From positions 32,732 through 96,731 of the IMG/VR virus record IMGVR_UViG_3300035698_007355: a stretch of DNA of 64,000 nt; one strand, given 5' to 3'. Shown one piece after another: positions 9,703-59,917 of the stretch. The notes beneath the pieces are model-generated. The model saw only the letters and a program-made list of their open reading frames with translations. It made no database searches and was not told where the DNA came from. The number at the start of each line of letters is the position of its first letter. Position 1 is the first letter of the stretch. The position numbers were made by a program, and so were the translations under genes. This DNA is from a virus.

Positions 9703-11766
9703 ATGGAGAATGTTATAATTACTGGTGTGGGTCAAGATGGTTATTATTTAAGTATTAAATTACTTGAGAAAGGTTATAAAGTTATTGGTATTGACCAATG
9801 GCAACATAAAGGTTATAATGATAACTACAAAGAATTAATGGAACATAAGAATTTCAAATTAATAGAAGGAAGTATTACTGATAGATATTTAATGAAACGA
9901 ATTATAAAAGAATATCAACCTAAATATTTTTTTAATACAGCAGCTATTAGTCATGTAGCAGTATCATTTGATATTCCAGAATTAACTTTCGATACAAATA
10001 CTATAGCACCTTTAAACATATTAGAAGAATTGAGACATAATAGTCCTCATACTAGTTTTCTTCAATGTTCTACAAGTGAACAATATGGAGATTTTGAAGA
10101 AACTCCTCAATCAGAAGAAACTAAAATGATGCCTAATAGTCCTTATGCGATTGCTAAAGCAGCTACTTTCTTTATGGTTAAACTTTATAGAAAATATGGA
10201 TTAAAAACATATAATACAATATGCTTTAATCACGAATCAATACCAAAAGAATCATCTATAACATTAAAACATAATAATAGATTACAAATAATACCAATTT
10301 GTGATTTATTTTATAAGCGCGGAGATAGATTTAGAGGATTTAATAAAAAATATATTGGGTCACAAGTATGGGACGGTGATAAATGGACTAAAATAATTGA
10401 TGGTACTTGTTATCAAAAGAAAAATAAACCTATGAAACTTATTCAAACCAGAGATGCTTGTTATGAGTCTACACTTGAACATAAAACATTTTTAAATGAT
10501 AATTCAGAAATAAATACTGAAGATGTTAAAAAAGGCGATGTGGTATATGAAACATTTGACCCAATTATAAAAGAATATGAAACTATAGATAAAGATTTAG
10601 CATACGCTATTGGATTTATAGTAGGCGATGGATATGTTTCTAAATCTGGTTATATAAGATTAACTGGATGTGATAAAAAAGAAATAACAAAAATTGCGAA
10701 TATTATCAAAAATAAATTTGGATGGTCTTATAGAACTTATAATTCCGGACCAGGAAATTGGGAAAATTGTGTAAATGATGTATATCAAATCGATTTTAAT
10801 AATGATGTAAATTTTGGATTATGGTTACGAAATTCAATATATTCAAAAAATACAAATAAAAAAATTGTTCCAGAATACATATTAAATGGAAATACCGATA
10901 TTAAGTTAGGATTTTTTAAAGGGTATTATTTAGCAGATGGAAGAAAAACTGGTAATGAAACATATGAATTTAAAGGATTTACTACAAATTCTCAAGCCCT
11001 ATGTATGGGGTTAAATCACATTTGTAAATTAGTATTAAATCAAATACCAAAAACTAAATGTGTTATAAAAGGAGATAAAAGATATTATTATACACAATTA
11101 AGAAATACTAATACAAACCTAGGGAAAGGCGCTATTAAAAAACTAAATGAAGTAATATCTATAAAAAATACTAAAAATCCAGATAATTGGTTTTTTGATA
11201 TTCAAACAGAATCAAAAGCATTTGTAACTGGACCAAATACTTTTAAAGTTCATAACAGTGAAATTAGACCTGATAATTTTGTTACAAGAAAAATTACAAA
11301 GACTCTAGCTGAAATGATGGTTGGTAAAGCAGATAAACTAACTTTAGGAAATATGGATGCAAAAAGAGATTGGGGATATGCTCCAGACTTTATCGATGGT
11401 ATGATTACTATTATGGAGTCAGACGAGCCAGATGATTACGTTTTAGCTACAGGCGAGACACATACTGTTAGAGAATTTGTAGAAGCAGCTATTAAAGCAC
11501 TTGGTCTAGATATTGTTTGGGAAGGAACTGGCGTTAATGAGAAGGGCTCGATTTTAGCAAGAGACCAAAACGGAAATCCTATAATAATCAAGAAAGATGC
11601 AGTAGTTGTAAACAAAGATTTTTATAGACCAGCAGAAGTAAATGTCTTATTAGGAGACCCTACTAAGATAAAAGAAAAATTAGGTTGGGAACCAACAACT
11701 AAATTTACAGAACTAGTTGCTAAAATGGTTAAGAATGACTTATTATTATGTGAGGAACAAAAATGA
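9703..11766 (+). CDS. gmd: GDP-mannose 4,6-dehydratase, intein-containing
   Basis: ITGVGQDG, AAISHV..SF, STSE, PNSPYAIAK, FNHE|S, FVTRKIT, RDWGYA, YRPAEV. Confidence 0.92.
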   Translation: MENVIITGVGQDGYYLSIKLLEKGYKVIGIDQWQHKGYNDNYKELMEHKNFKLIEGSITDRYLMKRIIKEYQPKYFFNTAAISHVAVSFDIPELTFDTNTIAPLNILEELRHNSPHTSFLQCSTSEQYGDFEETPQSEETKMMPNSPYAIAKAATFFMVKLYRKYGLKTYNTICFNHESIPKESSITLKHNNRLQIIPICDLFYKRGDRFRGFNKKYIGSQVWDGDKWTKIIDGTCYQKKNKPMKLIQTRDACYESTLEHKTFLNDNSEINTEDVKKGDVVYETFDPIIKEYETIDKDLAYAIGFIVGDGYVSKSGYIRLTGCDKKEITKIANIIKNKFGWSYRTYNSGPGNWENCVNDVYQIDFNNDVNFGLWLRNSIYSKNTNKKIVPEYILNGNTDIKLGFFKGYYLADGRKTGNETYEFKGFTTNSQALCMGLNHICKLVLNQIPKTKCVIKGDKRYYYTQLRNTNTNLGKGAIKKLNEVISIKNTKNPDNWFFDIQTESKAFVTGPNTFKVHNSEIRPDNFVTRKITKTLAEMMVGKADKLTLGNMDAKRDWGYAPDFIDGMITIMESDEPDDYVLATGETHTVREFVEAAIKALGLDIVWEGTGVNEKGSILARDQNGNPIIIKKDAVVVNKDFYRPAEVNVLLGDPTKIKEKLGWEPTTKFTELVAKMVKNDLLLCEEQK
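10237..11256 (+). mobile_element. Intein with LAGLIDADG endonuclease in Gmd (340 aa)
   Basis: Interrupts FNHE|SEIR; starts SIPKES, ends KVHN before Ser; motifs IGFIVGDG and KGYYLADG. Confidence 0.88.
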
Positions 11767-13012: not shown

Positions 13013-14092
13013 ATGATAAGAATAGGAGATTTCATTCCTGAGAAGAAACATATAGACGCAGTTCTAGAAGTTATTAAATCAGGACGTATAACAGAAGGCT
13101 CAAAAGTTAAAGAACTAGAGAAAGTTATGGCTAAATACCTAGATGTAAAACACGCAATACTTACAACAAATGGAACAGTAGCTTTACAATTAGTAGCAAC
13201 ATATCTAAGACATAGAGACAAAGATAATGTTAATACAGCTATTCCAGCTATGACATTTCCAGCAACTATAAATGCATTTGCTGTTGGTGGATTTCCAGTA
13301 GCTCTAGTAGATATTAAAGAAGATTTACAAATAGATATTGGTAAAATCACAGATGAAATGAAACCAAATATTGATATTATAGTACCTGTACATCTTATGG
13401 GGTATACAGCAGATATGGATAAAATTATGGCTGACGCTGAGAAATATGGTTGGACAGTTGTTGAAGACGCTTGTGAAGCGTTTGGGTCAGAATATAAAGG
13501 TAAAAAAGTAGGAACTATAGGACACTTTGGTTGTTTTAGTTTTTATGTATCACATAACATAACAGCAGGAGAACTTGGTATGGTTGTAACAAACGATGAC
13601 GAAGCTGCTAAAATTATGAGAAGTATGAAGAATCACGGAAGAACAGGAGATTCAATGAAATTCCTACACGGATATATTGGGTCTAATTATAAAACAACAG
13701 AATTCACAGCAGCTATAGGATTAGCTAATATGGAGAATGTTAATGATATTATATCTGAGAGAAAAGCAAATTGTCAATACTTTTTAGATAATATCAAGAA
13801 TGATAATTTAATATTATTTCCAGTACCAGAAGGGTTTAGTCCATTAGGATATCCTATAAAATGCTTAACCCCTAAATATAGAACAAAGATTTGTAAAAAA
13901 TTAAATGATAATAATATTGAAACAAGAGACATCTTTCCTTGTCTAGCTAACCAGGACGCGTATAGAGTGCATTTTAGAGACTCTAATCTCCCAGTAGCAG
14001 ATACACTAGAAAAAACTGTTTTCTATATAGGATGTCACCAATTTTTGTCTGAGAGCGATAAGAAGAAAATAATAGAGGTATTATCAGAATGA
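13013..14092 (+). CDS. DegT/DnrJ-family PLP enzyme, His-type (ColD/RfbH-like sugar 3-dehydratase)
   Basis: NGTVAL, VPVHLMG, VEDACEAFG, SFYVSHNITAGELG (His at the usual Schiff-base Lys position). Confidence 0.8.
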   Translation: MIRIGDFIPEKKHIDAVLEVIKSGRITEGSKVKELEKVMAKYLDVKHAILTTNGTVALQLVATYLRHRDKDNVNTAIPAMTFPATINAFAVGGFPVALVDIKEDLQIDIGKITDEMKPNIDIIVPVHLMGYTADMDKIMADAEKYGWTVVEDACEAFGSEYKGKKVGTIGHFGCFSFYVSHNITAGELGMVVTNDDEAAKIMRSMKNHGRTGDSMKFLHGYIGSNYKTTEFTAAIGLANMENVNDIISERKANCQYFLDNIKNDNLILFPVPEGFSPLGYPIKCLTPKYRTKICKKLNDNNIETRDIFPCLANQDAYRVHFRDSNLPVADTLEKTVFYIGCHQFLSESDKKKIIEVLSE

Positions 14093-16358: not shown

Positions 16359-18014
16359 ATGCGAACATATAAGGAAATGATTAAGGATTACTTAATCTGG
16401 TTCAATCAACGACAAAAGGAACAGGGAACACCCGAAGAAAACTTAGATGATTATTTTAGAGAAGAATCACAAGAAGCTACAGTAAAAAAAGGTAAAGTTT
16501 GGGCAGAAATATTAAGATTGTCTTATTTACCAGAAGAAGGGATATTTTGGTTCACAAAATTCATTTTAGGAGACTTAATGTATGCAGGATATCCAAATCC
16601 AATACGATTTAACCATTTATGGTGGAAATGGACTAAAATAGCCAATTCCGGTGACCATATTTCAATAAAATGTTCAAGACAGCATGGAAAATCAACATAT
16701 TGGACTGTTTTACAATCGATTTATAGGACAAGTATGTTTGAACATTATAATGTACTAATAGAATCAGCTTCAGAAGACCAAGCAGTAATGCTTATGGGAT
16801 ATATTGTTAATATAATTAATAATAATGAATTCCTGCAAAATAAAAAAGCTAAAAGTGCTAAATGGAGTACAACAGAGATTAGTTTTAATGGTGGAAAAAT
16901 AGTTGGTAAGGGTGTAGGGTCAGAAGTTAGAGGTGGAACTTATGATTATATAGTTGCTGACGATATTTTACGTTCAGATAATAAATTAGGTGATGATGAC
17001 ATAGAAAAATTCGTTGGAGAAGAGCTAGAAGCTATGATTTTCGTCCGAAAAGGACAAATGGTGCTTGTAGGGACTCCAAAATCAGAATCAGACATATTTT
17101 CAACGATTGATGAACGAATTTACAATGGGTCATCAGGTTGGAAACAATATACTTATCCAGCAATATTAAATTGGGACACTAAAGAAATATTATGTCCTGA
17201 TAGGTTTACTTGGGACCAATTAATGCGAAAAAGACAAATTATGGGTAATATGAAATTCGATAAAGAATTTATGTGTCAAACTTATAGCAGTGGGTCACAA
17301 TTATTTCCTAATGAGTTGCGTAAACTAGCAATGGATAAAGGAAAACAATATAAATTATATTCAAAGGCGAAGCCTGAAGAAATTAGTAAAATAGCATATT
17401 ATATTGGGGTAGACGTTGCACGAGCTGGTACAGCTAGCGCAGATTATACAGTAGCAACTGTAATAGCTTATAACACAGAAGACCAAACCAAACGAGTTGT
17501 ATGGTTATGGAGAAAAAAAGGTTTAAAAATAAATGAACAAGTAAGTCAAATAGCTGAAATATCAAAACAATTTAATAATCCAGTAATTTTAGTAGAACAG
17601 AATAATATTGGACAAGACTTTATAGATGAGATGGTAGATAACTACAATTTAAATGTAGAAGCATTTCTCACAACTAAAGGTAGTAAATATGAAGATTTGA
17701 TTAGATATTTAGTAGCAGCGTTTGAAAATGAGAAAATCATATTACCAACAGGTAACGATTTTAGTAAAGAAGTCATTAAAGATTTAGATAGGGAATTGGA
17801 AAGATTTGTAGTTGAAATCACAAAAGCTGGCAACGAAGTATTTAAAGGGTCAGGACATTCACATGATGATATGGTGATAAGTCTTGCATTAGCTAATAGG
17901 TGTACTCAAAGTTATGGGTATTCACCATTTTCAAGTTCGTTGTCAACTAAAAAATCATCTGCTTTAGAGAATTTTGCAGCAACCGGGGATTTAAGAGAAG
18001 TACTTAGATTTTAG
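16359..18014 (+). CDS. terL: Terminase large subunit
   Basis: Walker A SRQHGKS, Walker B YIVADD, VGTP, nuclease IGVDVA and HDDMVISLALA. Confidence 0.92.
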   Translation: MRTYKEMIKDYLIWFNQRQKEQGTPEENLDDYFREESQEATVKKGKVWAEILRLSYLPEEGIFWFTKFILGDLMYAGYPNPIRFNHLWWKWTKIANSGDHISIKCSRQHGKSTYWTVLQSIYRTSMFEHYNVLIESASEDQAVMLMGYIVNIINNNEFLQNKKAKSAKWSTTEISFNGGKIVGKGVGSEVRGGTYDYIVADDILRSDNKLGDDDIEKFVGEELEAMIFVRKGQMVLVGTPKSESDIFSTIDERIYNGSSGWKQYTYPAILNWDTKEILCPDRFTWDQLMRKRQIMGNMKFDKEFMCQTYSSGSQLFPNELRKLAMDKGKQYKLYSKAKPEEISKIAYYIGVDVARAGTASADYTVATVIAYNTEDQTKRVVWLWRKKGLKINEQVSQIAEISKQFNNPVILVEQNNIGQDFIDEMVDNYNLNVEAFLTTKGSKYEDLIRYLVAAFENEKIILPTGNDFSKEVIKDLDRELERFVVEITKAGNEVFKGSGHSHDDMVISLALANRCTQSYGYSPFSSSLSTKKSSALENFAATGDLREVLRF

Positions 18015-19314: not shown

Positions 19315-20032
19315 ATTTGATGTCCAAGCTATAAGTGATGGAGTTTTAAATACATTTTTAGTAACTTTTACTAAAGATTCTAAAACACTACAAGCTCACG
19401 ACTATATGATTATAGAAGATGAGGACTTTAAAGGAAAAATACTTGATGTAGGGTGTGGTCCAGGGAAGTTAGCTATAATGGCTAAATTACTCAATGAGGA
19501 CTTAGATATTACTATATTTGATGGCAGTGTTGTTAATTTACAAATAGCTATGTCACTAATATATAATGCAGGGCTTAATGAATATTTTAATAAAAGTATA
19601 AAAGCTGAATTAGGTCTAATTGGAAAGAAATTAGAGCATAGATATGATACTATAGTACTAAATCACATTTTAGAACATTTAGATAGCTTAGATGAAGCGT
19701 TTGACTGGTTAAATGAAATATTAGAGCCTGGTGGAACAATTTTTATAGCAGTTCCTTATAAAGACTTTCATTACAGTCAAAATCACACAAGATTTTTTAA
19801 AGTATCAAGTGATACTAATAATAATGGAATATTAGACCCAGACCATAAGTGTTTTGATATAGATACTTATTTAGATGGTTTAGGAATAGATGCAGAAATA
19901 ACAATATTTGATGAAAGTCAAGTAGACATAAGACAGCCATATAATAGTCGTGGACAATTAGATATGTTAATCAAAATCAAAAAACCTGGTAACGAAGTAG
20001 TATCATCAGACACAATATTAAGCAAACACTGA
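19295..20032 (+). CDS. Class I SAM-dependent methyltransferase
   Basis: ILDVGCGPG, HILEHL, LEPGG..IAVP. Confidence 0.85.
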   Translation: MKRQLNKFDVQAISDGVLNTFLVTFTKDSKTLQAHDYMIIEDEDFKGKILDVGCGPGKLAIMAKLLNEDLDITIFDGSVVNLQIAMSLIYNAGLNEYFNKSIKAELGLIGKKLEHRYDTIVLNHILEHLDSLDEAFDWLNEILEPGGTIFIAVPYKDFHYSQNHTRFFKVSSDTNNNGILDPDHKCFDIDTYLDGLGIDAEITIFDESQVDIRQPYNSRGQLDMLIKIKKPGNEVVSSDTILSKH

Positions 20033-20131
20033 TACCTTTACATACGTTACTCAACCTGACAGAACAAAGTTATACGTAACACACTTACGTACATTAAATC
20101 CTTACCATCATAATTATGCCCTGTAGCATAT

Positions 20132-20205
20132 GCCCTTGTAGCATAATTGGCTAGTGCAGTTGGTTTGTAACCAACAGGTTGTCGGTTCGACTCCGACCAA
20201 GGGCT
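20132..20205 (+). tRNA. tRNA-Thr(UGU)
   Basis: GCCCTTG/CAAGGGC acceptor; GTTGG-TTTGTAA-CCAAC anticodon arm; GTCGG-TTCGACT-CCGAC T arm. Confidence 0.9.
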
Positions 20206-20214
20206 TTTAGTATT

Positions 20215-20289
20215 GGGGCTGTAGCATAATCCGGTTAATGTGCCTGGCTGTTGACCAGAGGATTACAGGTTCAAATCCTGTCGGCTCCG
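20215..20289 (+). tRNA. tRNA-Asn(GUU)
   Basis: GGGGCTG/CGGCTCC acceptor; CTGG-CTGTTGA-CCAG; ACAGG-TTCAAAT-CCTGT. Confidence 0.85.
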
Positions 20290-20296
20290 CTTTTAT

Positions 20297-20368
20297 GCGT
20301 CATTGGTGTTAACGGTAGCATCTCTGGCTTCCAACCAGATGGAGTGAGTTCAAATCTTGCATGGCGCA
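20297..20368 (+). tRNA. tRNA-Gly(UCC)
   Basis: GCGTCAT/ATGGCGC acceptor; TCTGG-CTTCCAA-CCAGA; GTGAG-TTCAAAT-CTTGC. Confidence 0.85.
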
Positions 20369-20371
20369 TAT

Positions 20372-20443
20372 GCCTCTATAGTGTAGTAGTTATCATCCGA
20401 CGTTGTCTGCGTTGGGACGAGGGTGCAAGTCCCGTAAACTCCA
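20372..20443 (+). pseudogene. Pseudo or chimeric tRNA-Asp(GUC)
   Basis: Good anticodon arm CGACG-TTGTCTG-CGTTG, but acceptor strands GCCTCTA and AAACTCC do not pair. Confidence 0.65.
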
Positions 20444-20465
20444 TTTTTATTAAACAGGTGAGAAA

Positions 20466-20840
20466 ATGAAATTAACTAAAAGACAAATAGATAAATATCT
20501 GATTTTTTTAAACGAATACAAAGTCTATGTGGGATTACACGATTGGAAAATCATGTTAGACATTGAATTGCTGAAAGGCGACAGTTTAGCACATACACAG
20601 CCAGATAATATGGAAAAAGAGATGATAGTAACTTTATCAGAAGAATTTCTTGATAAGTCTGAAACGGTGCAGTGTAATATACTATTCCACGAATTAATGC
20701 ATGGTAAAGTATGTATTCATAACAATATGATTAGAGCACATGTAGCTATACTTGAAGAACACTTTGTTAATGATATAACAAGAGGGTTTGAAAAAGCTCT
20801 CGAAAAAGAATGGGTTAGCCTTAAAGAGGAGAAAAATTGA
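20466..20840 (+). CDS. Small zincin-like (HExxH) protein
   Basis: ILFHELMH...EEHFV. Confidence 0.55.
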   Translation: MKLTKRQIDKYLIFLNEYKVYVGLHDWKIMLDIELLKGDSLAHTQPDNMEKEMIVTLSEEFLDKSETVQCNILFHELMHGKVCIHNNMIRAHVAILEEHFVNDITRGFEKALEKEWVSLKEEKN

Positions 20841-21933
20841 AATGAAAACAATGAACGATATGTATGGAGATGGAAGCAAACACGAAGTTTGTGAAAAATG
20901 TGGTATGTGTATCACTTGCAAGGATTGTAAATGTCCAAAATATAAATACGAGATACGAAAATGAAGACAATAAAAGAATATAACAGTTGTAAAGAACGAT
21001 GGAAGAGAGCTAAAGCTAATTGGAAGAACTATGATAAAAACTTCCACACAGTAAGTAGAATAAGACTGTCAATCAATGGATTCTTAGATTATCAGAGGGA
21101 TATAAAATGAGAGGCAAAACATGTATGAAGTGTGGGTCAACACGAATCGAAATGCTACAATCAGATGAATATGCTTGTAAGGCATGCAGAACATATTATT
21201 CCTTGAGAGATATAACAGACGAAGAAATGATAGAGTGGTTTGTAAATTAATTCTAAAGAAAAAATGCAATGAAGACTATAGAAAATCGTTGTGAGCGTAA
21301 GCGAGGGGATATTCTATCTCGATGGGACGGTTACGGGATAACAAATAAGATTTGTTACGTGTAGTAATAGGTTTTCTAAAATTTTAAAAAATTTTTCCGG
21401 AGGTACAGTATACACGTCTTATTAAATAAGACAGTAACTATTCTTTTTTAAGCTTATTTTTCATTGTTACTACTCTTTAGTAACGTCATTTTGAAAATAA
21501 GTCAAATTCAAAAATCTAAAAGTAACTCGAACTTTTTCAAATCGAAACTTTTTTTCTCATAGTCGATTAACGATAGTTAAGTCACTACTCTTCAAGGGCA
21601 ACACTCGCACTAACGTCGCATCACATTGTCGCCCCTTCGCAGTAGTAACACTGTGTTGTTATTCTTTAGTAGTATATTGTTGTTGTTACTTAATAGTAAT
21701 AATAATATTGTTATTCAATAGTAGTAACAAAAATGTTGTTTTAATGATTTAAAGCTTGTTTTAAGCTTCTTTAGTCATTTAAAGCTTGTTTTAGTCGAAT
21801 GAACAAAAACAAAAACAATTTAAGCACTTTTTCTTTATTTAAAGACTAATTTAATCTATGATTATAGTAAAAAAGCTGTTTGCTTAAAACTTTTAATCAT
21901 ATCTTACAATCTTAATAAAAAAAGTCTTATAAA

Positions 21934-21948
21934 CAAAACCTTTATAAA
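21934..21948 (+). promoter_or_regulatory. BRE-TATA promoter (putative early)
   Basis: CAAAACCTTTATAAA. Confidence 0.5.
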
Positions 21949-22187
21949 GAGTACTTCACATAATAATAATATAAACAATCAAAAAAAAGTGTCTTAACAG
22001 AAGATACACGCATAACGAAAAAAGCATTTATAAGTAAAACTTTAAAATGCTAAATCTGAAACTTAGAAATGAATAAAAGCATTTCGATTTATACTTTTCT
22101 TTTATAGTTAATGACGAATATTTAAGAGCAAAAAAAGTTTATAATCTTTTCTTTACGAAAGTTAAAAAAGATTTGAGAGTGTGAAAA

Positions 22188-22535
22188 ATGTCTAAAACAA
22201 AAATCGTTTTAAGTGAAATTAGTTTAAGTGAACAATTAAAGACTGCAAAAGCTTTAGTTTTAGAGCAAAATGCAAAAATCGCAGAACAAACAAAAGCTAT
22301 TGAAGAGCAAAAAATTAAACTTGCGAATTCAAAAGTGATTAAAACAGAATCTGAATTTTTCAGAAATAAAGATGTCGAAACTGCGAAAGTCTTTAAAAAT
22401 ATGTCAGAAACAATAAAGTTTTTTGAAGTCAAATTTCCCGATTTTGTAAAACAGATTTGTGAAGATGAAAAAAAAGTTTTAATAACTGCAAACGAATTTC
22501 ATTATGTAATAGCAAGAAAGCTAAATCTTAAATAA
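22188..22535 (+). CDS. Hypothetical protein, paralog of 23572-23859
   Basis: N-terminal coiled coil, NMSETIKFFE..PDF..QIC..EFH; followed by a T-tract terminator. Confidence 0.7.
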   Translation: MSKTKIVLSEISLSEQLKTAKALVLEQNAKIAEQTKAIEEQKIKLANSKVIKTESEFFRNKDVETAKVFKNMSETIKFFEVKFPDFVKQICEDEKKVLITANEFHYVIARKLNLK

Positions 22536-22584
22536 TTTTTTTTATTTTTTTTCTTTTCAAATAAAAAAATAAGAGTGTGATATT

Positions 22585-22847
22585 ATGACTAAAAAATTAC
22601 AAATAGATTATATAAAATATGTTGATAACGTAATTATATTTAAAGACGTAAGAAAAAAAGACGAGTTGATGAAAAAAAGAATATAAAACAACAAATCGAG
22701 AAAAACACAAAAGAAATCGAAAATAAACTATATGTTGAAATTTGCGAAATTATCACGAATGAAAATTTAAAAGATAGTGAAAAGACAAAACAAATAATAA
22801 ACGTCTTTAAAGATTTCGATTTTTTTAATAATTTAGAACAATATTAA
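22585..22847 (+). CDS. Hypothetical ORF split by a -1 frameshift at A7 tracts
   Basis: Frame 0 stops at 22686; -1 frame is open 22644-22847; RBS-like AAGAGTGTGA; T-tract after 22847. Confidence 0.4.
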
Positions 22848-22897
22848 TAATTTTTTCTTTTCTTTTTTAGTAAAATAAAATAATGTGAGATGAAAAA

Positions 22898-23080
22898 ATG
22901 ACAGATAAAATAAAAGAATTAATAGAAAATATTGAACAATTAAACGAAACAATACGAGAAACACAACAAAAACGAAAAGAACTAAAACAAGAATTAATTT
23001 ATAATTTAGTTTCGGAAAGTGATTTTTTTAGTATTAATGTAAATCTTAAATCATTAACAAACAGATATTTAAGAAATTAA
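22898..23080 (+). CDS. Small coiled-coil protein
   Basis: 60 aa, followed by a long T-tract. Confidence 0.6.
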   Translation: MTDKIKELIENIEQLNETIRETQQKRKELKQELIYNLVSESDFFSINVNLKSLTNRYLRN

Positions 23081-23535
23081 TTTTTTTCTTTTTTTTTGTC
23101 TTTCTAATTAACGATAGTGAATTATATAGTCGAGCTGACGTCGATGTGCGCCTGTCGCCCCTCGCCAATAGTAACACGACTTTATTCATACGGCGCTTAT
23201 GTGACCTAATTACAACTGCAAAAAGGTGGCCGACTGTGTTCTTCTGGCGTTAATGCGGCCTAATTCTAACTACAAAAAGTTGACGGGCTTTCTGAACAGG
23301 TGTTAGTGTGGATTTCGCCTCTGGCCAGTAGTAACAACGCCTCTCGCATTGTCGCCCCTTGGCAGTAGTAACACGGTGCCGCCCCTGAACAGTGATAACA
23401 GGTTGTTACTACTCTTGAGTGGTACCACATTGTCGCCCCTCTCCAGTAGTAACAAGGCGTTGCCACTGTCCAGTAACAAAAAAAGTGTTACTACTATATA
23501 GTGGATATTGTTGTTCATTTTTGGCCAGTGAAAAA

Positions 23536-23550
23536 CGAAACCTTTATATA
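23536..23550 (+). promoter_or_regulatory. BRE-TATA promoter (leaderless gene)
   Basis: CGAAACCTTTATATA; ATG at 23572. Confidence 0.7.
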
Positions 23551-23571
23551 CTAGTCTTCATTACTAATATT

Positions 23572-23859
23572 ATGGCAAAAGAAAAAAGTGTCGAGGCAAA
23601 CGACCAAAAAGAACTTGCGGCTCTTAGAGCAGAAAATGAGGCTTTGAAAATCGCCTTATCAAAAACAGGCAAAAAAGAAGTTTCGGACTTTTTCTTTGTT
23701 GAGAAAACAGGCCTACCAATGAAATGGACTAACGTTTCGGAAACAAAAAAGTTTTTCGAGATTAACAGGCCTGAAGTTTTGGTTGAACTTTGCAAAACTT
23801 TGAAAGTGGAAATGCTTTCGTCAGCACAATTTCACCAATATCTTTTCGGACTCAAATGA
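23572..23859 (+). CDS. Hypothetical protein, paralog of 22188-22535
   Basis: Start MAKEKS at 23572; NVSETKKFFE..PEV..ELC..QFH; hairpin GGACTCA-AA-TGAGTCC plus T-run at the stop. Confidence 0.7.
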   Translation: MAKEKSVEANDQKELAALRAENEALKIALSKTGKKEVSDFFFVEKTGLPMKWTNVSETKKFFEINRPEVLVELCKTLKVEMLSSAQFHQYLFGLK

Positions 23860-24130
23860 GTCCATTTTTTTTTGATTTTCAACTTAACGATAGTGAAGTG
23901 ATGTTGATGTAGCCTTTTGCCTCTAGCCAGTAGTAACACACATAGTATGAAATGGCGCTAATGCGGCCTATTTGTCTCTCCTAAAAGGTGGCCGAACTTA
24001 TCAGGGCTATCACATTAGCCACAGACCGATTGCCTTATACCATACATATTGTTATTTAAGGATGTGTGTAACACTAATTGCTGCCTAAAAAAGTTGACCG
24101 AGTCACTATACACTAATGAATCGTGAAAAA

Positions 24131-24145
24131 CGATAAGTTTATAAA
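24131..24145 (+). promoter_or_regulatory. BRE-TATA promoter
   Basis: CGATAAGTTTATAAA ahead of several very short ORFs (24228-24727). Confidence 0.5.
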
Positions 24146-24717
24146 GATTAGAATTAATACTATATTAGGCGCAAGAAAACTTGCTGTCTCGCCTTAGCGT
24201 TGTGTCGTAAACAACTGCCACAAAAAATGAGTATATTAAACCTGTTTAAGAAGAAAGCCACAGTATATGTGGATTGGAATGCATTTCAAGACTTTATGGA
24301 CTTCCACTCTACACACCAATTTCAACAAGACGTGCGGAAATCTAACTTGGAGGCTAAAAAATGAAACAAAATACAAAGGATATAAAAAATACCATACTAG
24401 TGTTAATTCTCTATATGGTAATTATAGTAGGATTTTTCTTACTAGGAGGGCTTTAAAATGATAATTGAGATAGCCATAATAAGTCTGGCAAGAAGAAATG
24501 GTGGTTATAAAATTCCCACCGACCCATTTAATCCAATGTTTGATGCAAGATATCCATTAACTCTAGGATATAATATGGAGGTGGATTTAAATGTGTAAAC
24601 ACAAATGGTACCGAGAACTTAAAGCACCTTGCATTAGAGGAGGATGGCTAATGGTATATAGATGTCATTGGTGTAGAATTGTGGATTTCAAATACGACCA
24701 CGATAAAGAATATATTA

Positions 24718-24744
24718 AGCCCCTATAGGGGCTCCTTTTTTTTT
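24718..24744 (+). terminator. Hairpin plus T9 terminator
   Basis: AGCCCC-TATA-GGGGCT-CC-T9. Confidence 0.65.
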
Positions 24745-25104
24745 GTTGCTGAAACTTAACGATAGTTAATTGGTTCAATTGGCGTTGCTGTGGCCTAATT
24801 CCTTATGGAAAAAGGCACCCGAGTTATTTGAACAGGCGTGTGTGTGGCCTAATTCCCTCTCCTTAAAAAACCTGGGGAAAAACAACCTATAGTAAGGGGG
24901 TTTTGTGCTTGGAATGCAAAATCTCCCCTAGTAAGGGTATTTAGTTAGGCCTTCAACCAGACGGACAGTCTCCACATAGCCACCAGACCGAAGGCGTAGG
25001 CCACAGTCCATCAGGATTTGTGCTTAAAAACGAGCCACAACAATATATACCTATATAGAGAGTAGAAGTTTTTCAGGAATCTAATGAGAGGCGAGGGAGG
25101 AATA

Positions 25105-25186
25105 CTATACTTGAGCCTATACCTCCAGCTATACTTGAGCCTATACTTGAGCCTATACTTTCCTATACCTCCAGCTATACCTAAGC
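25105..25186 (+). repeat. Seven tandem ~12-bp CTATAC-N6 units
   Basis: CTATAC followed by TTGAGC, CTCCAG, TTGAGC, TTGAGC, TTTC, CTCCAG, CTAAGC. Confidence 0.85.
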
Positions 25187-25353
25187 CTTCTCAACAGCTT
25201 CCAAACCTTTCAGGATATTGTCTCTTACCAATGGTATTACTTACTAGGATATCTTGTAGCGGTTTTTGTTGCGGAGTGTTACTACTTGGATATAGTGAAA
25301 CGTATTCTCTACTGGACAGTAGTTACAAAAGTGTTACTACTGGCTCGTGAAAA

Positions 25354-25369
25354 TGACAACATTTATATA
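25354..25369 (+). promoter_or_regulatory. BRE-TATA promoter
   Basis: TGACAACATTTATATA, preceded by TGTTACTACT. Confidence 0.55.
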
Positions 25370-25495
25370 CTCACGAATCAATACTATACTAGGTTGAAAA
25401 TCTATGATGAACCACTTCCACTAGCTATTGGTAAACTTTTTTTATTATAGTGGTGGAAAGTCTCCAAGGAGAGTTCATAGAGAGGTAAACTAAAA

Positions 25496-25954
25496 ATGGC
25501 AAAAAAAGATAAACAAGTGGAAGTATTGGACAACGACGCGGAAGTATTTACTACCAAGGTCGGTTGGAACAGTGAAGATATGAAAGGCTTACCAGCACAG
25601 GCAGCAGGTTGGAAGGAAGGAGCAGCGCCCCATTTCTCAGTAGGACTTGGTATGTTAAAGGCAGTTGCTGAATCACCGAACACAAAGGAATTTGTAGTTG
25701 GAAACTATGTAGTTGGTGATGAAATAATTCCAATTATTGATGCTCCAGCTCTAACGCAGGACATTCTTAAAACCTACGCTGAATCTAAGGAACTTGAAAT
25801 TCAAACCTTCAGACTAGCTGGAAGTAGAACTGGTGCCAGAAAAGAACTGGATGAGATTAAATCCACATTTGCTGGAATTGATGATGCGGCTATGAAAATT
25901 TTGGAAGAAACAAATCCAGAAGTCTATGCCAAAATTATGGGTTTCCAAGCGTAA
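25496..25954 (+). CDS. Hypothetical protein
   Basis: 152 aa, GAGGT RBS, T-tract at 25980-26000. Confidence 0.7.
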   Translation: MAKKDKQVEVLDNDAEVFTTKVGWNSEDMKGLPAQAAGWKEGAAPHFSVGLGMLKAVAESPNTKEFVVGNYVVGDEIIPIIDAPALTQDILKTYAESKELEIQTFRLAGSRTGARKELDEIKSTFAGIDDAAMKILEETNPEVYAKIMGFQA

Positions 25955-26036
25955 TTCTGGAATCCAAAGCACCCCACTAATTTTTTTTCTTTTTATTTTT
26001 CCATATATCAAAGCATATCTATAACGGAGGAAAACA

Positions 26037-26522
26037 ATGCCTATACGAATAAATCCAGATACTGATAAGTCCACATTACAAAGACGGGCTACTCAAGCCA
26101 CAATAAAATTTCTAAGTAAATATCCAAAGTTCATTTACAGCACAAATAATCCTATTTCTATACTCCAACAAGACAATCCAAAGCTAGATTTATCCATATT
26201 TAATAATTCTCCAGAACTACTGGCATCATTTGTGTCCGATTTAGTTGAAGGAACTCATATTGAATGGACTGTATATAAAATCCAATACTCCGAACTTGTG
26301 ATGGAACAGAGTAAAGGAAGACCAGAACCGAACAGAAAAAGCGGTGGTGTTCCCGTCCATAAAACAGAACGCCAAGCACAAATGTATCAAAGATGGGGAC
26401 AAACTCATACACCAAATCTAAATCTAGGAAAGTATAAAACCGATAAAGAAAGGATAAAAGCTATCCTTAAAAGTGATTGTGCGCCACAAATAAAGGCAGA
26501 ACTACTAGGGGTTTACAAATGA
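26037..26522 (+). CDS. Hypothetical protein
   Basis: 161 aa, GGAGG RBS. Confidence 0.65.
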   Translation: MPIRINPDTDKSTLQRRATQATIKFLSKYPKFIYSTNNPISILQQDNPKLDLSIFNNSPELLASFVSDLVEGTHIEWTVYKIQYSELVMEQSKGRPEPNRKSGGVPVHKTERQAQMYQRWGQTHTPNLNLGKYKTDKERIKAILKSDCAPQIKAELLGVYK

Positions 26523-46102: not shown

Positions 46103-46825
46103 ATGGTAGAAAGAATAGGGGAAGGATTTAATAGTAAATTAATTTTCTCTAAAGAGGAGATTGAAGATATTAAAAACAAATATAAAACACAATCCGCAAC
46201 AGAAATAGCTAATTTTTATAAATTAAATTCAAGTAATATAATATTTGTGTTAAATGAGAATAATATTAAAACACGAACAAGGGAAGAATCACAACAAAAT
46301 TATTTAATACAAAATAATGATAGGTCTTTAAAACAATCAGAATTTATGAAAAATAATAACCCTATGAATAATCCTGAAAGTAGGAAAAAATGTTCACAAC
46401 CTGGTAAAATAAACGCTAATTGGAAAGGTGGAAACATAAAAGTTATTTGTGATAAATGTAAAAGAATTAAATTATTAAAAAAATCAGAATTGAAGAAAAG
46501 GAAATTAAATGGTTTATGTTGGAATTGTTATAAACATTCAAGTCCAAAATCATCACTAGAAATAAAAACAGCAGAAGAATTAACAATACAAGGTATAAAA
46601 TATGAAGAGCAAGTTCCTTTTCACGGAATGTTTTTAGATTTTGTATTACCAAATAAAATTGTTATAGAAGTAGACGGTGAATATTGGCATAATTTACCAG
46701 ATAATAAAAACAGAGATTTAAGAAAAAATAAGTTATTAAAACAAGAAGGTTATAAATTATTCAGGTTTACAGACAAAGAAATTAATGAAGATGTTAAATT
46801 ATGTATAAATAAGGTGAAAAAATGA
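46103..46825 (+). CDS. DUF559/Vsr-like homing-type endonuclease
   Basis: LDF..IVIEVDGEYWH...RDLRKNKLL..GYKLFRF; NNPM and NANWKGG repeats. Confidence 0.75.
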   Translation: MVERIGEGFNSKLIFSKEEIEDIKNKYKTQSATEIANFYKLNSSNIIFVLNENNIKTRTREESQQNYLIQNNDRSLKQSEFMKNNNPMNNPESRKKCSQPGKINANWKGGNIKVICDKCKRIKLLKKSELKKRKLNGLCWNCYKHSSPKSSLEIKTAEELTIQGIKYEEQVPFHGMFLDFVLPNKIVIEVDGEYWHNLPDNKNRDLRKNKLLKQEGYKLFRFTDKEINEDVKLCINKVKK

Positions 46826-48152: not shown

Positions 48153-48213
48153 GTGTGCTCGGTCGGAGTCCCTCAGTTCATTACTTGGTCCCGTTCGACT
48201 CGGGAAGCGCGCA
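48153..48213 (+). ncRNA. tRNA-like element (degenerate, CAU in loop)
   Basis: Acceptor GTGTGCT/AGCGCGC-A; perfect T arm TCCCG-TTCGACT-CGGGA; shortened D and anticodon region. Confidence 0.55.
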
Positions 48214-48224
48214 ATACTACTAAA

Positions 48225-49025
48225 ATGAAACATACAATATATACCGGGGATTCTCTAACGAGGGTCAAAGAATTGGATGGTAATTCTGTTCACTTAACTG
48301 TAACTTCTCCTCCATACTTTAATGCAAAATCTTACAATATGGAAAATGTGAATGTTGGTAATAATGAAAACTATAATGATTATCTTAATAAGATTAAAGG
48401 ACTTCTAATTGATTTGTTCGAAAAGACGGTAGCAGGCGGAATAGTTATTTGGAATACAAGTCCTGTAATTGATAATGGTAAACGATATGGTATACCATTT
48501 GATACAGATATATTATTTAGAGAAGTTGGATTTGAATTTCTTGAAGATATTATTTGGGTTAAACCAGATGGTGCTGCTAAATTAAGATGTGGTGGTTGGT
48601 ATCAGAACAAAGGACGACCAATGACATGGCACGCAAATATCAATACAGAATATATTATGGTTTATAAGAAACCAGGAGAAAGAGAACAAAAGGACTTTGT
48701 TAGTATTAGAAGTTATTACCCTGAAATCCCTAAAGATATGCTTACAGCAACATGGTATATCAATCCAGAAACAAACAAAACATTTCACGATGCGCCATTT
48801 CCAAATGAATTGGCTAAACGTTGTATAGTATTATATAGCTATCCAGGTGATACAGTATTAGACCCATTTGCAGGTACCTTTACTGTGTCCAGACAAGCTA
48901 GAGAATTAGGACGTAATTCTATTGGTATGGAATTATCACAAAAATATATAGATTATGGAAAAGAAGTAATGGGCTTTCATCAGAAGAGTCTATTTGGTAC
49001 ACAAGAAGAATATGAGGAAAAATGA
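48225..49025 (+). CDS. DNA methyltransferase (N4-C/N6-A, beta class)
   Basis: VTSPPY, HDAPFP, VLDPFAGT; start MKHTIY at 48225. Confidence 0.88.
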   Translation: MKHTIYTGDSLTRVKELDGNSVHLTVTSPPYFNAKSYNMENVNVGNNENYNDYLNKIKGLLIDLFEKTVAGGIVIWNTSPVIDNGKRYGIPFDTDILFREVGFEFLEDIIWVKPDGAAKLRCGGWYQNKGRPMTWHANINTEYIMVYKKPGEREQKDFVSIRSYYPEIPKDMLTATWYINPETNKTFHDAPFPNELAKRCIVLYSYPGDTVLDPFAGTFTVSRQARELGRNSIGMELSQKYIDYGKEVMGFHQKSLFGTQEEYEEK

Positions 49026-56416: not shown

Positions 56417-59400
56417 ATGTCAATGTACCTATGTGAAAACAAGCATACTGACACATCAACAGAAATATATGAATTTCATAGAAATAAAGATGGGACTGCT
56501 GAAACGCGTGTTATCAAGGCATTTAAGCCCTATTTTTTTGTAGATGAACAAACACCTATAGAAGGATTTGATGGTGTTATTAAGACTATAAAGGGCTTTA
56601 AATCGATTGAGGACACACAAGTCAAGAAAGTTATAGTTCAAAAGTCAAATGCTATTAAACCATTACGATTAAAAGTTGAAGAAATGGGGTATAAACATTG
56701 GGAAGCTGATATAATGTTTCCTAATCGTTACACAATAGACTTACCAGAAGATATTGAAGAAACTCCTTTAAAAGTATGCTGGATAGATATTGAAACAGCG
56801 CCGGAAGACACTTTTAAAAAAGGTGCTTATTTAGGTTGGGGAAAGTTCCCTGATGCTGAAGAGGCTGAACAAGCTATTTGTTGTTTAACTACTAAAATTG
56901 GTGATACAACTACTGTATGGCTATGTGGTCCTAATGATTATCCAGGAACTAGATATTTTAAATACGAGAAGAAGATGTTGGATGACTTCATCAAATTCTT
57001 TCACAAAGAATCTCCTGATATTATCAGTGCTTGGAACTTAGATGGTTTCGACTTACCATATATTATTAATCGTTGTAAAAGATTAGGTGTTGATTATAAA
57101 GGTCTTAGTAAGACTAGAGATATGTGGGAAAATGAATTCAAAGGTAAAAAAGAATACAAGACTTTTGGAACAATACAATTAGATTTATTAGATGGTTATA
57201 AGTTGTGGAGAAAATATGGTGGTTTACCATTACTCGCAAGTTATAAATTAGATTTCGTAGCAGAAACAGTATTAAATGATAGAAAATTAGACCACGGTAA
57301 GACAATAGCTTGGTTATGGAAGAACGATTTAAAGACGTTAATAGAGTATAACATACAAGACGTAGAACTATTAGATAAGATTAATAAGCGTTGTAAAGTC
57401 ATTAAATTCTTTGATAGCATTAGAAGAAAATGTAGAATACAATTTAATGATGTTTATAAAACAACAGCTATGTTAGATGGTTACTTTATTTCAAGATTAA
57501 AAGGAAGTATAATATTACCTACTTCAAAACATGTTAAAGGAGATAAATTTGGAGGAGCTTACGTATTTGACCCTGTACCAGGAGTGTATGACTATATCTT
57601 ATGTCAAGATATTGCCGCAATGTATCCAAGTATAATTAAACTATATAATATTTCATATGAGACTGTTGGTGGTGGTGATATAATTCTCCCACTTGAAAGT
57701 AAAATCTCATTTAAACGAGAACCAGGTATAATACCTAGATTCTTAGATGAATTAAAAGCTGAAAGGAATGAATTTAAGAAATTAAGAAAACAAGCTAAAA
57801 ACCAAATTGAATATGAATTATATGACCAAAGACAATTAGCAACAAAGATTATTATGAATTGTTTTAGTACAGATACTGATATTATGACCACTACAGGTAT
57901 ACAAAATATTAAAGATATTAAATTAGGAGATTCTGTATATTCTATAAACCCTAAAACTAAAGATATGGAAATTAAAAAAGTTATAAATACTTTTAAATAC
58001 AACTATACAGGAGATATGATACATATAAATAATCAAAATATTGATTTAATAGTTACCCCAGAACATAATATGTTAACAAATAACGGAGATTTTATACATG
58101 CTAATAAATTTAACCATAATCATGGAATACCATTACATAATAAACAATTACACACTACCTCCCCGGATTTTATAAATTTGTTTGCTTATGACGATGTAGA
58201 TAAATATAGATATTATTTAAATAAAACTAAAGATTTAAGAACTTTAAAATTAAAATTTCCAAATATTGAATTTAAAAAGATAAATAAAAAATGTTGTGAA
58301 GTATTACACGAATATGATTTAAAAACTTTATACCATAAAGGTTATGATGTTTTCGCAAAACCAAAAAGAAATAAAAATTGTAATAAATTTAGACCATATA
58401 TTAAACCAGAACTTTTTGCATCACTTGTAGGATTTTATGTAAGTGAAGGTAGTCTTGGAAAAACTGCAAAGAAAGGTAGAAGAGGAATAACATACAGTAT
58501 AGACATATCGCAAAACAAAGAAAAAAATCTTGAAACATATAAGAAAATTGAAAAAGTTGTAAATCAACTGGGTATAAAATCTAGAACTTATAAAGAAGTA
58601 ATATCGTTTTCAAGTGATATATGGTATAAAATTTTAAAAGAAACAGGTACAAATGCTAAAACTAAAACATTAGGACAATTTATAAATTTACCAACAAAAG
58701 AATTATTTGATGCTTTATATGAAGGTGATGATAATAAAAATATTAATAGATATAATACCTCATCAAAACTCTTAGCTGAAGAAGTTTTAGAATTAGTATT
58801 TAAACTTGGGTTTAGAGGTATGATAACACAAACAAAAGATAAATGTTATAGAATAAATTTCCAAAAACGTATGTGGAAACCACATGATTCAAGTATCAAC
58901 ACTATAAAAAATAATAGCAATGAAGTATATTGTATCGAAGTAGAAGATAATCATACTGTATTAGCAGGAAGAAATTATAAAATGTGTTGGACAGGGCAAA
59001 GTATGTTTGGATATCTTGGATTTCCAGGAGCAAGACTATATAAAAGAGCAGTTGCAGAAGCCATTACAGGAATGGGGCAATATATTATTAAGAAGATTGC
59101 TGAATGGTGTGAAGAAAGAGGTAATAAAGTTATTTATGGTGACACAGATTCGGTATATATAACGTCTACCTCATCAACGCCATATGAAGTAGTATTAGAC
59201 GGAGTAAACGTTGCTAAATATATTAATAAAAAATTAGAAGAATTCGCCTTACAATATGGTGATACAAACTACCTATTTATAGAATTTGAGAAAGGATTGA
59301 AAAGAGTATTGTTTACAGATGCTAAAAAAAGATATGCTTATACATTATTGTGGGACGCTGATGATAAATTCAAAGTGGATAAGAAAATTCACATACAAGG

Positions 59401-59917
59401 ATTTGACGCAAAAAGGTCAGACTCTAACTTACCATCAAAACAAGCACAATTAGAAGTAATAAAACTGATTATAGATAATAAACCTAAATCAGAAGTATTA
59501 GAATATTTGAGGAATTTAGAACATAAAATGAAAATTGGAGAATTTAGCGACGCTGAAATTGGTTTCCCTAAAGGAATAACAAAAGATTTAAAAGATTATA
59601 AACCACCGACACCTATAATTAAGGGTGCTGCATTTTCAAATAAATACTTTGACACTTCATTTGGAAGAGGTACTAAACCTAAATTCGTATACATTACAAC
59701 ATATAACGGACAAGACAAATATGTTTTTTTAAATAATAAAGACTATTTACTTGAAAGTATAACATACGATACAGAAATCCCCAAAGGATTTCAAATTGAT
59801 TGGGACAAAATGAGTGATAATACATTTAGAAAGAAATTGCAAAAAATATTTGACGCTGCTGGATGGGAATGGGAACAACTCTCAATGGTAGGTCTTAGTA
59901 GCTGGGGTGCAAAATGA
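56417..59917 (+). CDS. polB: Family B DNA polymerase, intein-containing
   Basis: DIET, WNLDGFDLPY, YNIQD, DIAAMYPS, KIIMN|SMFG, YGDTDS, KKRY. Confidence 0.95.
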   Translation: MSMYLCENKHTDTSTEIYEFHRNKDGTAETRVIKAFKPYFFVDEQTPIEGFDGVIKTIKGFKSIEDTQVKKVIVQKSNAIKPLRLKVEEMGYKHWEADIMFPNRYTIDLPEDIEETPLKVCWIDIETAPEDTFKKGAYLGWGKFPDAEEAEQAICCLTTKIGDTTTVWLCGPNDYPGTRYFKYEKKMLDDFIKFFHKESPDIISAWNLDGFDLPYIINRCKRLGVDYKGLSKTRDMWENEFKGKKEYKTFGTIQLDLLDGYKLWRKYGGLPLLASYKLDFVAETVLNDRKLDHGKTIAWLWKNDLKTLIEYNIQDVELLDKINKRCKVIKFFDSIRRKCRIQFNDVYKTTAMLDGYFISRLKGSIILPTSKHVKGDKFGGAYVFDPVPGVYDYILCQDIAAMYPSIIKLYNISYETVGGGDIILPLESKISFKREPGIIPRFLDELKAERNEFKKLRKQAKNQIEYELYDQRQLATKIIMNCFSTDTDIMTTTGIQNIKDIKLGDSVYSINPKTKDMEIKKVINTFKYNYTGDMIHINNQNIDLIVTPEHNMLTNNGDFIHANKFNHNHGIPLHNKQLHTTSPDFINLFAYDDVDKYRYYLNKTKDLRTLKLKFPNIEFKKINKKCCEVLHEYDLKTLYHKGYDVFAKPKRNKNCNKFRPYIKPELFASLVGFYVSEGSLGKTAKKGRRGITYSIDISQNKEKNLETYKKIEKVVNQLGIKSRTYKEVISFSSDIWYKILKETGTNAKTKTLGQFINLPTKELFDALYEGDDNKNINRYNTSSKLLAEEVLELVFKLGFRGMITQTKDKCYRINFQKRMWKPHDSSINTIKNNSNEVYCIEVEDNHTVLAGRNYKMCWTGQSMFGYLGFPGARLYKRAVAEAITGMGQYIIKKIAEWCEERGNKVIYGDTDSVYITSTSSTPYEVVLDGVNVAKYINKKLEEFALQYGDTNYLFIEFEKGLKRVLFTDAKKRYAYTLLWDADDKFKVDKKIHIQGFDAKRSDSNLPSKQAQLEVIKLIIDNKPKSEVLEYLRNLEHKMKIGEFSDAEIGFPKGITKDLKDYKPPTPIIKGAAFSNKYFDTSFGRGTKPKFVYITTYNGQDKYVFLNNKDYLLESITYDTEIPKGFQIDWDKMSDNTFRKKLQKIFDAAGWEWEQLSMVGLSSWGAK
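57860..58999 (+). mobile_element. Intein in PolB motif B (380 aa), C-terminal Gln
   Basis: CFSTDT...VTPEH...LVGFYVSEG...VYCIEVEDNH..WTGQ|S. Confidence 0.88.

Follow-up and report, generated by a model that had tools for sequence, protein, structure and literature searches.

A gene cassette almost free of GG and CC dinucleotides beside the packaging genes of an uncultured, apparently archaeal-type virus

Here we describe a 1747-base segment of viral DNA that is almost devoid of the dinucleotides GG and CC. It lies in a stretch of 64,000 bases, hereafter the window, which corresponds to bases 32732-96731 of a linear 96.7-kb IMG/VR record (IMGVR_UViG_3300035698_007355). The source is treated here as an uncultured archaeal-type tailed virus, an assignment drawn from the replication genes and promoter forms described below. 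Upstream of the segment lie the head and packaging genes, including those for the capsid protein, the portal and the large terminase (16359-18014), together with a glycosylation cluster and three transfer RNA (tRNA) genes. The segment itself begins at a conserved non-coding boundary element, carries three small open reading frames (ORFs) and is the first cassette after the late genes with promoters resembling the archaeal B recognition element (BRE)/TATA form. Its main features, in window coordinates and with ribosome-binding sites abbreviated as RBSs, are as follows.

21340-21445, plus strand: boundary element, non-coding; core AAATTTTTCCGGAGGTA at 21389-21405, invariant ACTATTC at 21437-21443; left edge of the purge
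21404-23150: GG/CC-purged zone; 9 GG/CC in 5 clusters, versus about 49 expected
22175-22184, plus strand: RBS of ORF1, GAGAGTGTGA, without GG
22188-22535, plus strand: ORF1, 115 amino acids; purged member of protein family A, with an N-terminal coiled coil
22571-22580 and 22885-22893, plus strand: the other two RBSs without GG, AAGAGTGTGA and GTGAGATGA
22585-22847, plus strand: ORF2, in two parts; a first 33 amino acids to 22686, then 61 more codons in the -1 frame
22898-23080, plus strand: ORF3, 60 amino acids, free of Gly, Pro and Trp

GG and CC are removed from a single segment

The segment holds nine GG or CC dinucleotides in its 1747 bases, in five clusters (GGG at 21596, CCCC at 21632, CC at 21939, CCC at 22437 and GG at 23014), against 48.7 predicted from its own G and C content. 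In 5000 shuffles of the segment the mean was 48.5, with a standard deviation of 6.1 and a minimum of 29, which places the observed count at z = -6.4; when scaled by the odds ratios found elsewhere in the window, where both dinucleotides are common (1.16 for GG and 1.40 for CC), the expectation rises to about 62. Ranked by length, the top four GG/CC-free gaps of the entire 96.7-kb record (576, 498, 305 and 194 bases) all fall inside the segment. Both edges are sharp: the last 100 bases ahead of 21404 contain 12 GG/CC and the following 192 contain none, and 16 occur in the 150 bases after 23150. A first-pass annotation, made from the letters alone, had picked out by eye the same five surviving sites and the abrupt boundary near 21404; these observations hold, and the depletion remains highly significant after correction for base content.

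The segment is richer in A and T than its flanks (G+C content 23.6%, with AA and TT raised). Plain AT-richness does not account for the loss, because CG and GC are enriched within the segment, to odds of 1.73 and 1.32, respectively, compared with 0.63 and 0.91 elsewhere. Exclusion by histones or nucleosomes was considered and rejected on the same grounds, GC and CG being enriched while GG and CC are removed. The depletion is confined to the segment rather than spread over the genome. One other low region was seen, outside the window at record bases 24800-25800 (locus L003, 560-1560), where a repetitive minus-strand ORF of 24% G+C is weakly depleted (observed/expected 0.34-0.48); this is a different phenomenon.

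Proteins and ribosome-binding sites bear the cost

The avoidance extends to the encoded proteins. ORF1 has one Pro and neither Gly nor Trp, and ORF2 and ORF3 contain none of the three, making one such residue in total where about 30 would be expected from the virus proteome; ORF3 is the only one of the 167 ORFs of at least 55 amino acids in the record to lack all three residues. When codons were resampled at fixed protein sequence, 3-7 GG/CC were predicted per gene and 0-2 are observed, so that synonymous positions and codon junctions are subject to additional avoidance beyond that seen in the choice of amino acids. ORF2 is interrupted by a -1 frameshift at a run of seven As (22672-22678) and continues to 22847, which corrects the earlier description of this gene; the frameshift could be a homopolymer sequencing error, the mark of a pseudogene or a site of programmed slippage.

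Translation signals are altered as well. In 26 of 28 other genes a GG lies no more than 21 bases from the start codon; all three cassette genes have RBSs without GG, as the first-pass annotation had noted along with the missing residues. Across seven genes of four lineages, the RBSs of purged units follow the form GAG[C/T]GTGA, reading GAGCGTGA or GAGTGTGA, in which an extra base separates the two Gs of the usual GAGGTGA.

Purged and normal forms of one protein family

The core gene of the cassette, ORF1, defines a new family of proteins of about 100 residues, here called family A, with the motif N-[LM]-S-E-T-K-[KR]-x-F-E ... F-H. An AlphaFold2 model (predicted local distance difference test score 79) consists of a long coiled-coil helix, a beta-hairpin and three helices. 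Foldseek searches of this model against PDB and BFVD returned nothing at E <= 0.001, VIA-align gave coiled-coil matches only (Z <= 5), ESM Atlas gave nothing above 0.81, and there was no match in Pfam, PHROGs or NCBIfam.

A profile search of 1.84 billion representative proteins yielded 75 family-A cluster representatives, in which the number of Gly, Pro and Trp residues per protein is bimodal: zero in 38, one in 5 and 2-14 in 32. Thus, 43 representatives are essentially free of these residues and 32 are normal, whereas at the rate of the normal form (5.7%) about 0.3% of 100-residue proteins would hold none. Four purged sequences and a single normal one went into the profile, a mix that inflates the share of purged forms but could not have created the bimodality. 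Five conserved columns that read G, P, W, P and G in the normal form are occupied in the purged form by R/N/S, A/D/Q, Y/F, S/E/L/F and N/V/K, respectively. Several of these replacements (W to F/Y, P to A/E/Q and G to V) require transversions, which excludes a footprint of pure C-to-T deamination.

Purged and normal forms are interleaved in the family tree, which is weakly resolved and calls for about 15 changes of state, at least two of them required by branches with good support. Closely related pairs are of opposite state, ORF1 itself having a normal form as its nearest homologue, and the purged state is kept at about 30% protein identity. Together, these observations imply a constraint that overrides conserved residues and translation signals, that is all-or-none and that has been gained and lost many times.

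The sharpest comparison lies within the window itself, where the cassette that follows the purged segment opens with a second family-A gene.

23572-23859, plus strand: normal paralogue of ORF1, first gene of module 2; 19 GG/CC and 6 Gly/Pro/Trp residues

The two proteins are 33% identical (E = 7e-10) and their genes lie 1.4 kb apart. The constraint is therefore positional: one virus, with the same host and the same enzymes, keeps a purged copy in its first cassette and a normal copy in its second. The fold itself tolerates Gly, Pro and Trp, since this paralogue and 32 normal homologues contain them.

The purge recurs in relatives

Scanning metagenomes with the terminase recovered 18 contigs at 54-77% identity. 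Four independent metagenome relatives, with terminases 56-77% identical to that of the window, are purged downstream of the boundary element.

L012, 12828-13470: 3 GG/CC versus 25 expected
L017, 2988 to the contig end: 8 GG/CC versus 55 expected
L021, 1776-2622: 0 GG/CC versus 30 expected
L024, 1177-1585: 0 GG/CC versus 10 expected

The zones of the relatives were delimited after the fact, so that their z-scores (-3.5 to -7.3) err somewhat on the generous side; even so, the independent contigs agree unambiguously. Pooled over the five lineages, the sense strand holds 5 GG where 86.5 are expected and 15 CC where 82.2 are expected, and because both have been removed from the same strand the constraint acts on the double-strand step GG/CC. 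Purged zones are 0.4-1.7 kb long. The BRE/TATA promoter is where the purge starts in L012, L021 and L024; in the window and L017 it also takes in 190-530 bases of regulatory DNA upstream of the first recognisable TATA box. In every lineage with a visible right end, it stops at or near a T-run terminator.

Purged cassettes do not all carry the same genes. L012 and L021 encode a second small protein (13265-13438 and 2231-2413, respectively), 67% identical between the two and with a C-terminal motif ...ARDNALNFFERV...ANKCL, which is absent from the window and unrelated to ORF2 and ORF3. The ratio of nonsynonymous to synonymous substitution rates (dN/dS) between its two gene copies is about 0.36 at a dS of about 0.73, yet both remain purged, with 0-1 GG/CC each, which argues for selection rather than decay. 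The first-pass annotation had proposed a segment purged of a short motif and had suggested looking for the same depletion in related genomes. That proposal can now be put more strongly, as a selected, positional, DNA-level avoidance that overrides protein and RBS preferences and that relatives have kept through saturating divergence.

Boundary element and module architecture

The left edge of the purge coincides with an 80-nt element common to seven lineages, in which it directly follows the packaging genes. Its consensus runs AAAATTTTTCCGGGGGTATAG, about 30 bases, ACTATTC, and its features are a GGAAAATTTTCC-like dyad, a G-run, TATAG, the spacer of about 30 bases and the invariant ACTATTC; the alignment of the seven lineages has 20 invariant columns, and some lineages carry the element in tandem duplicate. 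Its core occurs once in the window. In the relatives, copies of the element occupy these positions.

L012, 12470-12640
L017, 2880-3010
L021, 1460-1590
L016, 3230-3370
L024, 790-950
L013, 4150-4290

An IMG/VR scan with the element pattern gave 19 matches, all attributable to chance, and none was accompanied by the second conserved motif or by a purge. The element is a candidate packaging or terminus site, or a candidate site resembling an origin-recognition box.

From the boundary element onwards, 21404-25500 is built of tandem modules, of which the purged segment is the first. The layout of a module comprises a T-run terminator, TTAACGATAGTKAA, GTCGCCCCT-N5-AGTAGTAACA boxes with a palindromic variant, 54-nt units of the form GGCG...GGCC and a BRE/TATA promoter, with small genes at the end. 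The regulatory features of module 1 and the array that follows it are listed below.

21464-21485, plus strand: palindromic box TTGTTACTACTCTTTAGTAACG, of the AGTAGTAACA box family; recurs in later modules
21567-21582, plus strand: module-start motif TTAACGATAGTTAAGT, repeat family D10; opens modules 2-4 at 23108, 23884 and 24756
21626-21650, plus strand: sole retained GC-rich box, TGTCGCCCCT-N5-AGTAGTAACA, families D2 and D4; contains the surviving CCCC
21935-21950, plus strand: BRE/TATA-like element AAAACCTTTATAAAG; contains the surviving CC at 21939
22131-22146, plus strand: BRE/TATA-like promoter, with TTTATAAT at 22138-22145, about 45 bases upstream of ORF1; predicted from the archaeal promoter consensus and repeat family D6
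23082-23119, plus strand: T-run terminator followed by the next TTAACGATAGTG motif, families D5 and D10; right edge of the purge
23108-23560, plus strand: GG/CC-rich repeat array of module 2, untranslated, with GTCGCCCCT boxes, GGCGYTAATGCGGCCTAATT units and a BRE/TATA promoter at 23527-23552

The GC-rich box recurs five times in 23146-23938, and the CC-TTTATA junction is also present in promoters of the relatives. Survivors of the purge thus lie in conserved functional motifs, since module 1 retains one such box and the CC at its TATA junction. Direct and inverted repeats fill the untranslated array at 23108-23560, and similar arrays follow the purged genes of L012 and L024. Beyond the purge, 23108-25500 comprises three more modules, with GG/CC-rich untranslated arrays and paired 54-nt units GGCGYTAATGCGGCCTAATT...AAAAAGGTGGCCGA, each ending in a BRE/TATA promoter and small genes. 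A CRISPR-like nature of the tandem 54-nt units was considered and rejected, since the units diverge as wholes.

Genome context and restriction-site avoidance

CheckV estimates the record to be about 67% complete, and no end repeats are present. Downstream of the segment lie archaeal-type replication genes, encoding RadA (PF08423, E = 4e-56), a primase large subunit, an archaeo-eukaryotic primase domain, an intein-bearing family-B polymerase and a Cas4-like nuclease. Promoter-like elements in this part of the genome follow the archaeal BRE/TATA pattern; one of them, GTGAAAAACGAAACCTTTATATA, lies 22 bases before the start codon of the gene at 23572. These replication genes and promoter elements are the grounds for assigning the virus to an archaeal type. 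LAGLIDADG inteins split both the GDP-mannose 4,6-dehydratase gene (9703-11766) and the family-B DNA polymerase gene (56417-59917). The tRNA cluster, 1 kb upstream of the purge at 20132-20369, encodes Thr-TGT, Asn-GTT and Gly-TCC; the virus thus supplies a glycine tRNA, yet its putative first early proteins lack glycine. An Rfam scan of 20000-26500 found nothing beyond these three tRNAs.

Searches for close relatives and a host returned little. There was no near-identical DNA in phage records; the terminase protein found only relatives at <=26% identity in a phage collection, and hence no cultured relative there; and a terminase scan of 185,579 species genomes revealed no provirus or relative, and hence no host lead. 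Within IMG/VR, the terminase detected only relatives at 30% identity, none of them usable, and scans with a downstream 152-aa protein, the GC-box pattern and the family-A alignment gave no usable relatives.

Restriction-type palindromes are scarce throughout the record. GATC is absent where about 231 are expected and CATG occurs 68 times against 303; CTGCAG (0 versus 11), CTTAAG (2 versus 12) and CAGCTG (3 versus 12) are likewise avoided, and GGCC and CCGG are only mildly low (0.59 and 0.65). This genome-wide avoidance of restriction sites is a possible clue to the host. Since the genome avoids such palindromes throughout yet is rich in GG/CC, the pressure against GG/CC is local. The virus also encodes a beta-class DNA methyltransferase (48153-49025), whose motif IV reads TSPPY, a form typical of N4-cytosine methyltransferases; its nearest solved relative is an ordinary Thermus enzyme. 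Two genes before it lies a protein with a DUF559/Vsr-like nuclease fold (46103-46825), with a 185-aa unassigned ORF between them, and the pair may constitute a virus-borne module for repair or of restriction-modification-like type.

A leading cassette without defence targets

The cassette has been written almost without GG/CC despite the cost to its proteins and RBSs, and something in the infected cell therefore reads this step on the cassette. To our knowledge, it is in leading regions that a virus has to keep a single stretch, and no other, free of defence targets, and we know of only one defence element as short as GG/CC, the protospacer adjacent motif (PAM) of CRISPR systems. The explanation that we favour, while giving it a little less than an even chance, is that the segment is a leading, immediate-early cassette free of defence targets, of the kind seen in phages T5 and T7. 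The sole, indirect pointer to a leading end is the conserved boundary element adjoining the terminase gene. The order of the circularised T7 map is terminase, small genes, non-coding element, early promoters and first early gene, and the same order is found here.

Under this explanation, the first early cassette, sitting right after the packaging genes and boundary element, would be exposed and needed before the virus takes over the cell, and would have to offer no handle to a host factor that recognises GG/CC; selection would keep its regulatory DNA, its RBSs and its three small genes free of the step. The leading, though unproven, candidate for the reader is a CRISPR system with a CCN or CC (equivalently NGG) PAM. 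Such a system could neither acquire spacers from the cassette nor target it, and type III systems that borrow spacers of this kind, with a preference for early transcripts, would likewise miss it. This specific version, in which a PAM-free cassette escapes CCN-dependent adaptation and interference as well as spacer-borrowing type III systems, is possible but on balance doubtful.

Several published observations bear on these proposals. PAMs of the form CCN or CC are found in types I-A, I-B, I-C and I-F (PMC8482600). In the euryarchaeon Pyrococcus furiosus, a CCN/NGG PAM serves all arrays and free DNA ends are preferentially sampled (PMC5737086), and type III systems draw spacers from immediately downstream of early phage promoters (PMC13575424). 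Restriction-modification and CRISPR act on T5 only if their target is situated in its first-step-transfer DNA (PMC10644984; 10.1101/866236), and in T7-like phages (Autographiviridae) restriction is determined by which motifs the leading region contains, a Type I system being escaped if its motif is absent from the first-injected region (PMC12455610). As in T5 and T7, a short and here presumably first-expressed stretch is devoid of a recognition element common elsewhere in the genome. The cassette is also followed by a repeat-rich untranslated array (23108-23560), a position comparable to that of the injection stop signal region after the T5 pre-early genes, although this is a resemblance only. 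Unlike in T5 and T7, what is avoided is a dinucleotide rather than a 4-8-bp site, and for that reason proteins and RBSs have been rewritten; further, the virus is of archaeal type, and the zone spans only 0.4-1.7 kb across lineages. The leading regions of conjugative plasmids resemble the cassette in that first-entering DNA carries first-needed genes and is under defence pressure (PMC11541004; PMC13478746), and differ from it in that target depletion here comes at a cost to translation signals. Our literature search found genome-wide PAM depletion, leading-region motif effects and leading-region anti-defence genes, and no near-complete purge of a dinucleotide from a single cassette.

A number of observations weigh against a defence-target-free leading cassette. 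First, between the boundary element and the promoter, L012, L021 and L024 retain 4-11 GG/CC in regulatory boxes, so that their leading DNA is not fully PAM-free. The first-pass annotation had taken the segment for the first-entering genome end by analogy with T5 first-step-transfer DNA; that the purge covers the probable first early cassette beside the packaging genes agrees with this analogy, and the remnants in these three relatives speak against a strict form of it in which all first-entering DNA is purged. Second, the L016/L018 lineage has the boundary element and boxes followed by unpurged genes. Third, the PAM depletion described in the literature is weak and spread over whole genomes (Kupczok and Bollback 2014, PMC4246573; for the CC PAM of the Pseudomonas aeruginosa I-F system, PMC12174588). 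The present case shares with it selection against a motif of two to three nucleotides, including CC/GG, on both strands, but here depletion is about 90% complete and limited to one cassette, the rest of the genome being enriched in GG/CC. Fourth, the leading regions of 1751 conjugative plasmids lack consistent depletion of short palindromic motifs of the Type II restriction type and are instead codon-optimised (PMC13478746). Fifth, the cassette proteins are basic, unlike acidic DNA mimics, and searches with Pfam, PHROGs, NCBIfam, Foldseek and VIA-align matched them to no known anti-defence protein or fold. Finally, the 70 database homologues of family A are known as protein only, so that its bimodality is a protein-level one.

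Alternative explanations

One alternative, which we regard as unlikely, is escape from the DNA chemistry of the virus itself: the virus would modify or attack a motif containing GG/CC, and the cassette would be kept free of the mark so that unmodified host machinery can read it on arrival. This would also account for the all-or-none, positional behaviour, and the virus does encode the TSPPY-bearing methyltransferase, near the DUF559/Vsr-like protein. In the 96.7-kb record, however, the DpdA/TGT family (PF01702), which was matched in 14 of 14 control genomes, gave no match, and QueC, QueD/PTPS, FolE and a C5-methyltransferase were not found there, with the qualification that other modification genes could be missing from a record of this completeness. 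The methyltransferase's nearest solved relative is an ordinary Thermus enzyme, and the total avoidance of GATC with strong avoidance of CATG argues against global modification of bases. Moreover, packaged DNA would already be modified everywhere, and depletion would be needed only if the mark blocked early transcription, an effect that m4C is not known to have.

A host reader of incoming DNA other than CRISPR is also improbable. Such a reader would be a nuclease or nickase with a very short site, or a double-strand DNA deaminase or glycosylase preferring CC, and the purged cassette would survive it until an inhibitor had been made, a sequence of events that we consider no likelier. Enzymes with 2-4-bp sites are known from chlorella viruses. 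The positional, all-or-none and both-strand evidence applies here as it does to the reading that we favour, and heavy nuclease pressure is clear from the genome-wide avoidance of sites; against this, GGCC and CCGG are only mildly low genome-wide, and our literature search found no defence with a bare GG/CC recognition element, nor is one known to us.

We give still less credence to a constraint on RNA, either an RNase that cleaves GG/CC motifs, as T4 RegB cleaves at GGAG, or a need for unstructured messages without Gly, Pro and Trp codons. In its favour, the purge runs from promoter to near-terminator in L012, L021 and L024, GG is purged from the sense strand harder than CC, and the RBSs are split specifically at GG. 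Sense-strand CC is itself purged more than fivefold, however, a double-strand reader would cover GG and CC by a single motif, and the purge extends to non-coding DNA, to codon junctions and, in L017 and the window, to DNA upstream of the first recognisable TATA box.

Erosion by mutation alone, with no part played by selection, whether through a CC-specific cytosine deaminase or through hypermutation of a duplicated or highly transcribed module, is very unlikely and largely refuted. The raised AA and TT of the AT-rich zone and replacements of G by N and D would fit G-to-A changes, but many other replacements need transversions (W to F/Y, P to A/E/Q and G to V), the loss is seen on both strands, the ORFs remain intact with a dN/dS below 1 (that of the L012/L021 second gene), the surviving sites sit in conserved functional motifs, the purge halts at cassette borders, and the state both persists at about 30% protein identity and flips repeatedly.

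Finally, an origin as a side effect of composition, as foreign DNA or as an error of assembly or sequencing, to which the low G+C content and the natural poverty of coiled-coil proteins in Gly and Pro might point, is refuted by significance after base-content correction with GC and CG enriched, by the recurrence of the same architecture and conserved flanks on contigs of several independent metagenomes, and by the normal paralogue and 32 normal homologues that tolerate Gly, Pro and Trp.

Implications

Restriction-site avoidance was known before, and PAM avoidance only as a weak, genome-wide effect. What is new here is that a two-letter step has been almost wholly removed from one cassette, to the point of banning three amino acids and splitting Shine-Dalgarno sites, and that this removal recurs across a diverse virus group, with purged and normal copies of a gene coexisting in one genome. 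The cassette is unusually clear evidence that GG/CC has, in infected archaeal cells, a strong reader whose action is limited by position. We infer an order of entry, a type of reader and an anti-defence role for the encoded proteins, and each of these becomes testable: which viral DNA is exposed first, what reads that DNA and what the first early proteins do. Were the reader a CRISPR system recognising its PAM, the cassette would represent a new kind of CRISPR evasion, and the purge would supply a simple mark in the sequence by which leading regions and anti-defence genes could be found in uncultured viruses. A PAM-free cassette would then amount to a previously undescribed counter-defence strategy.

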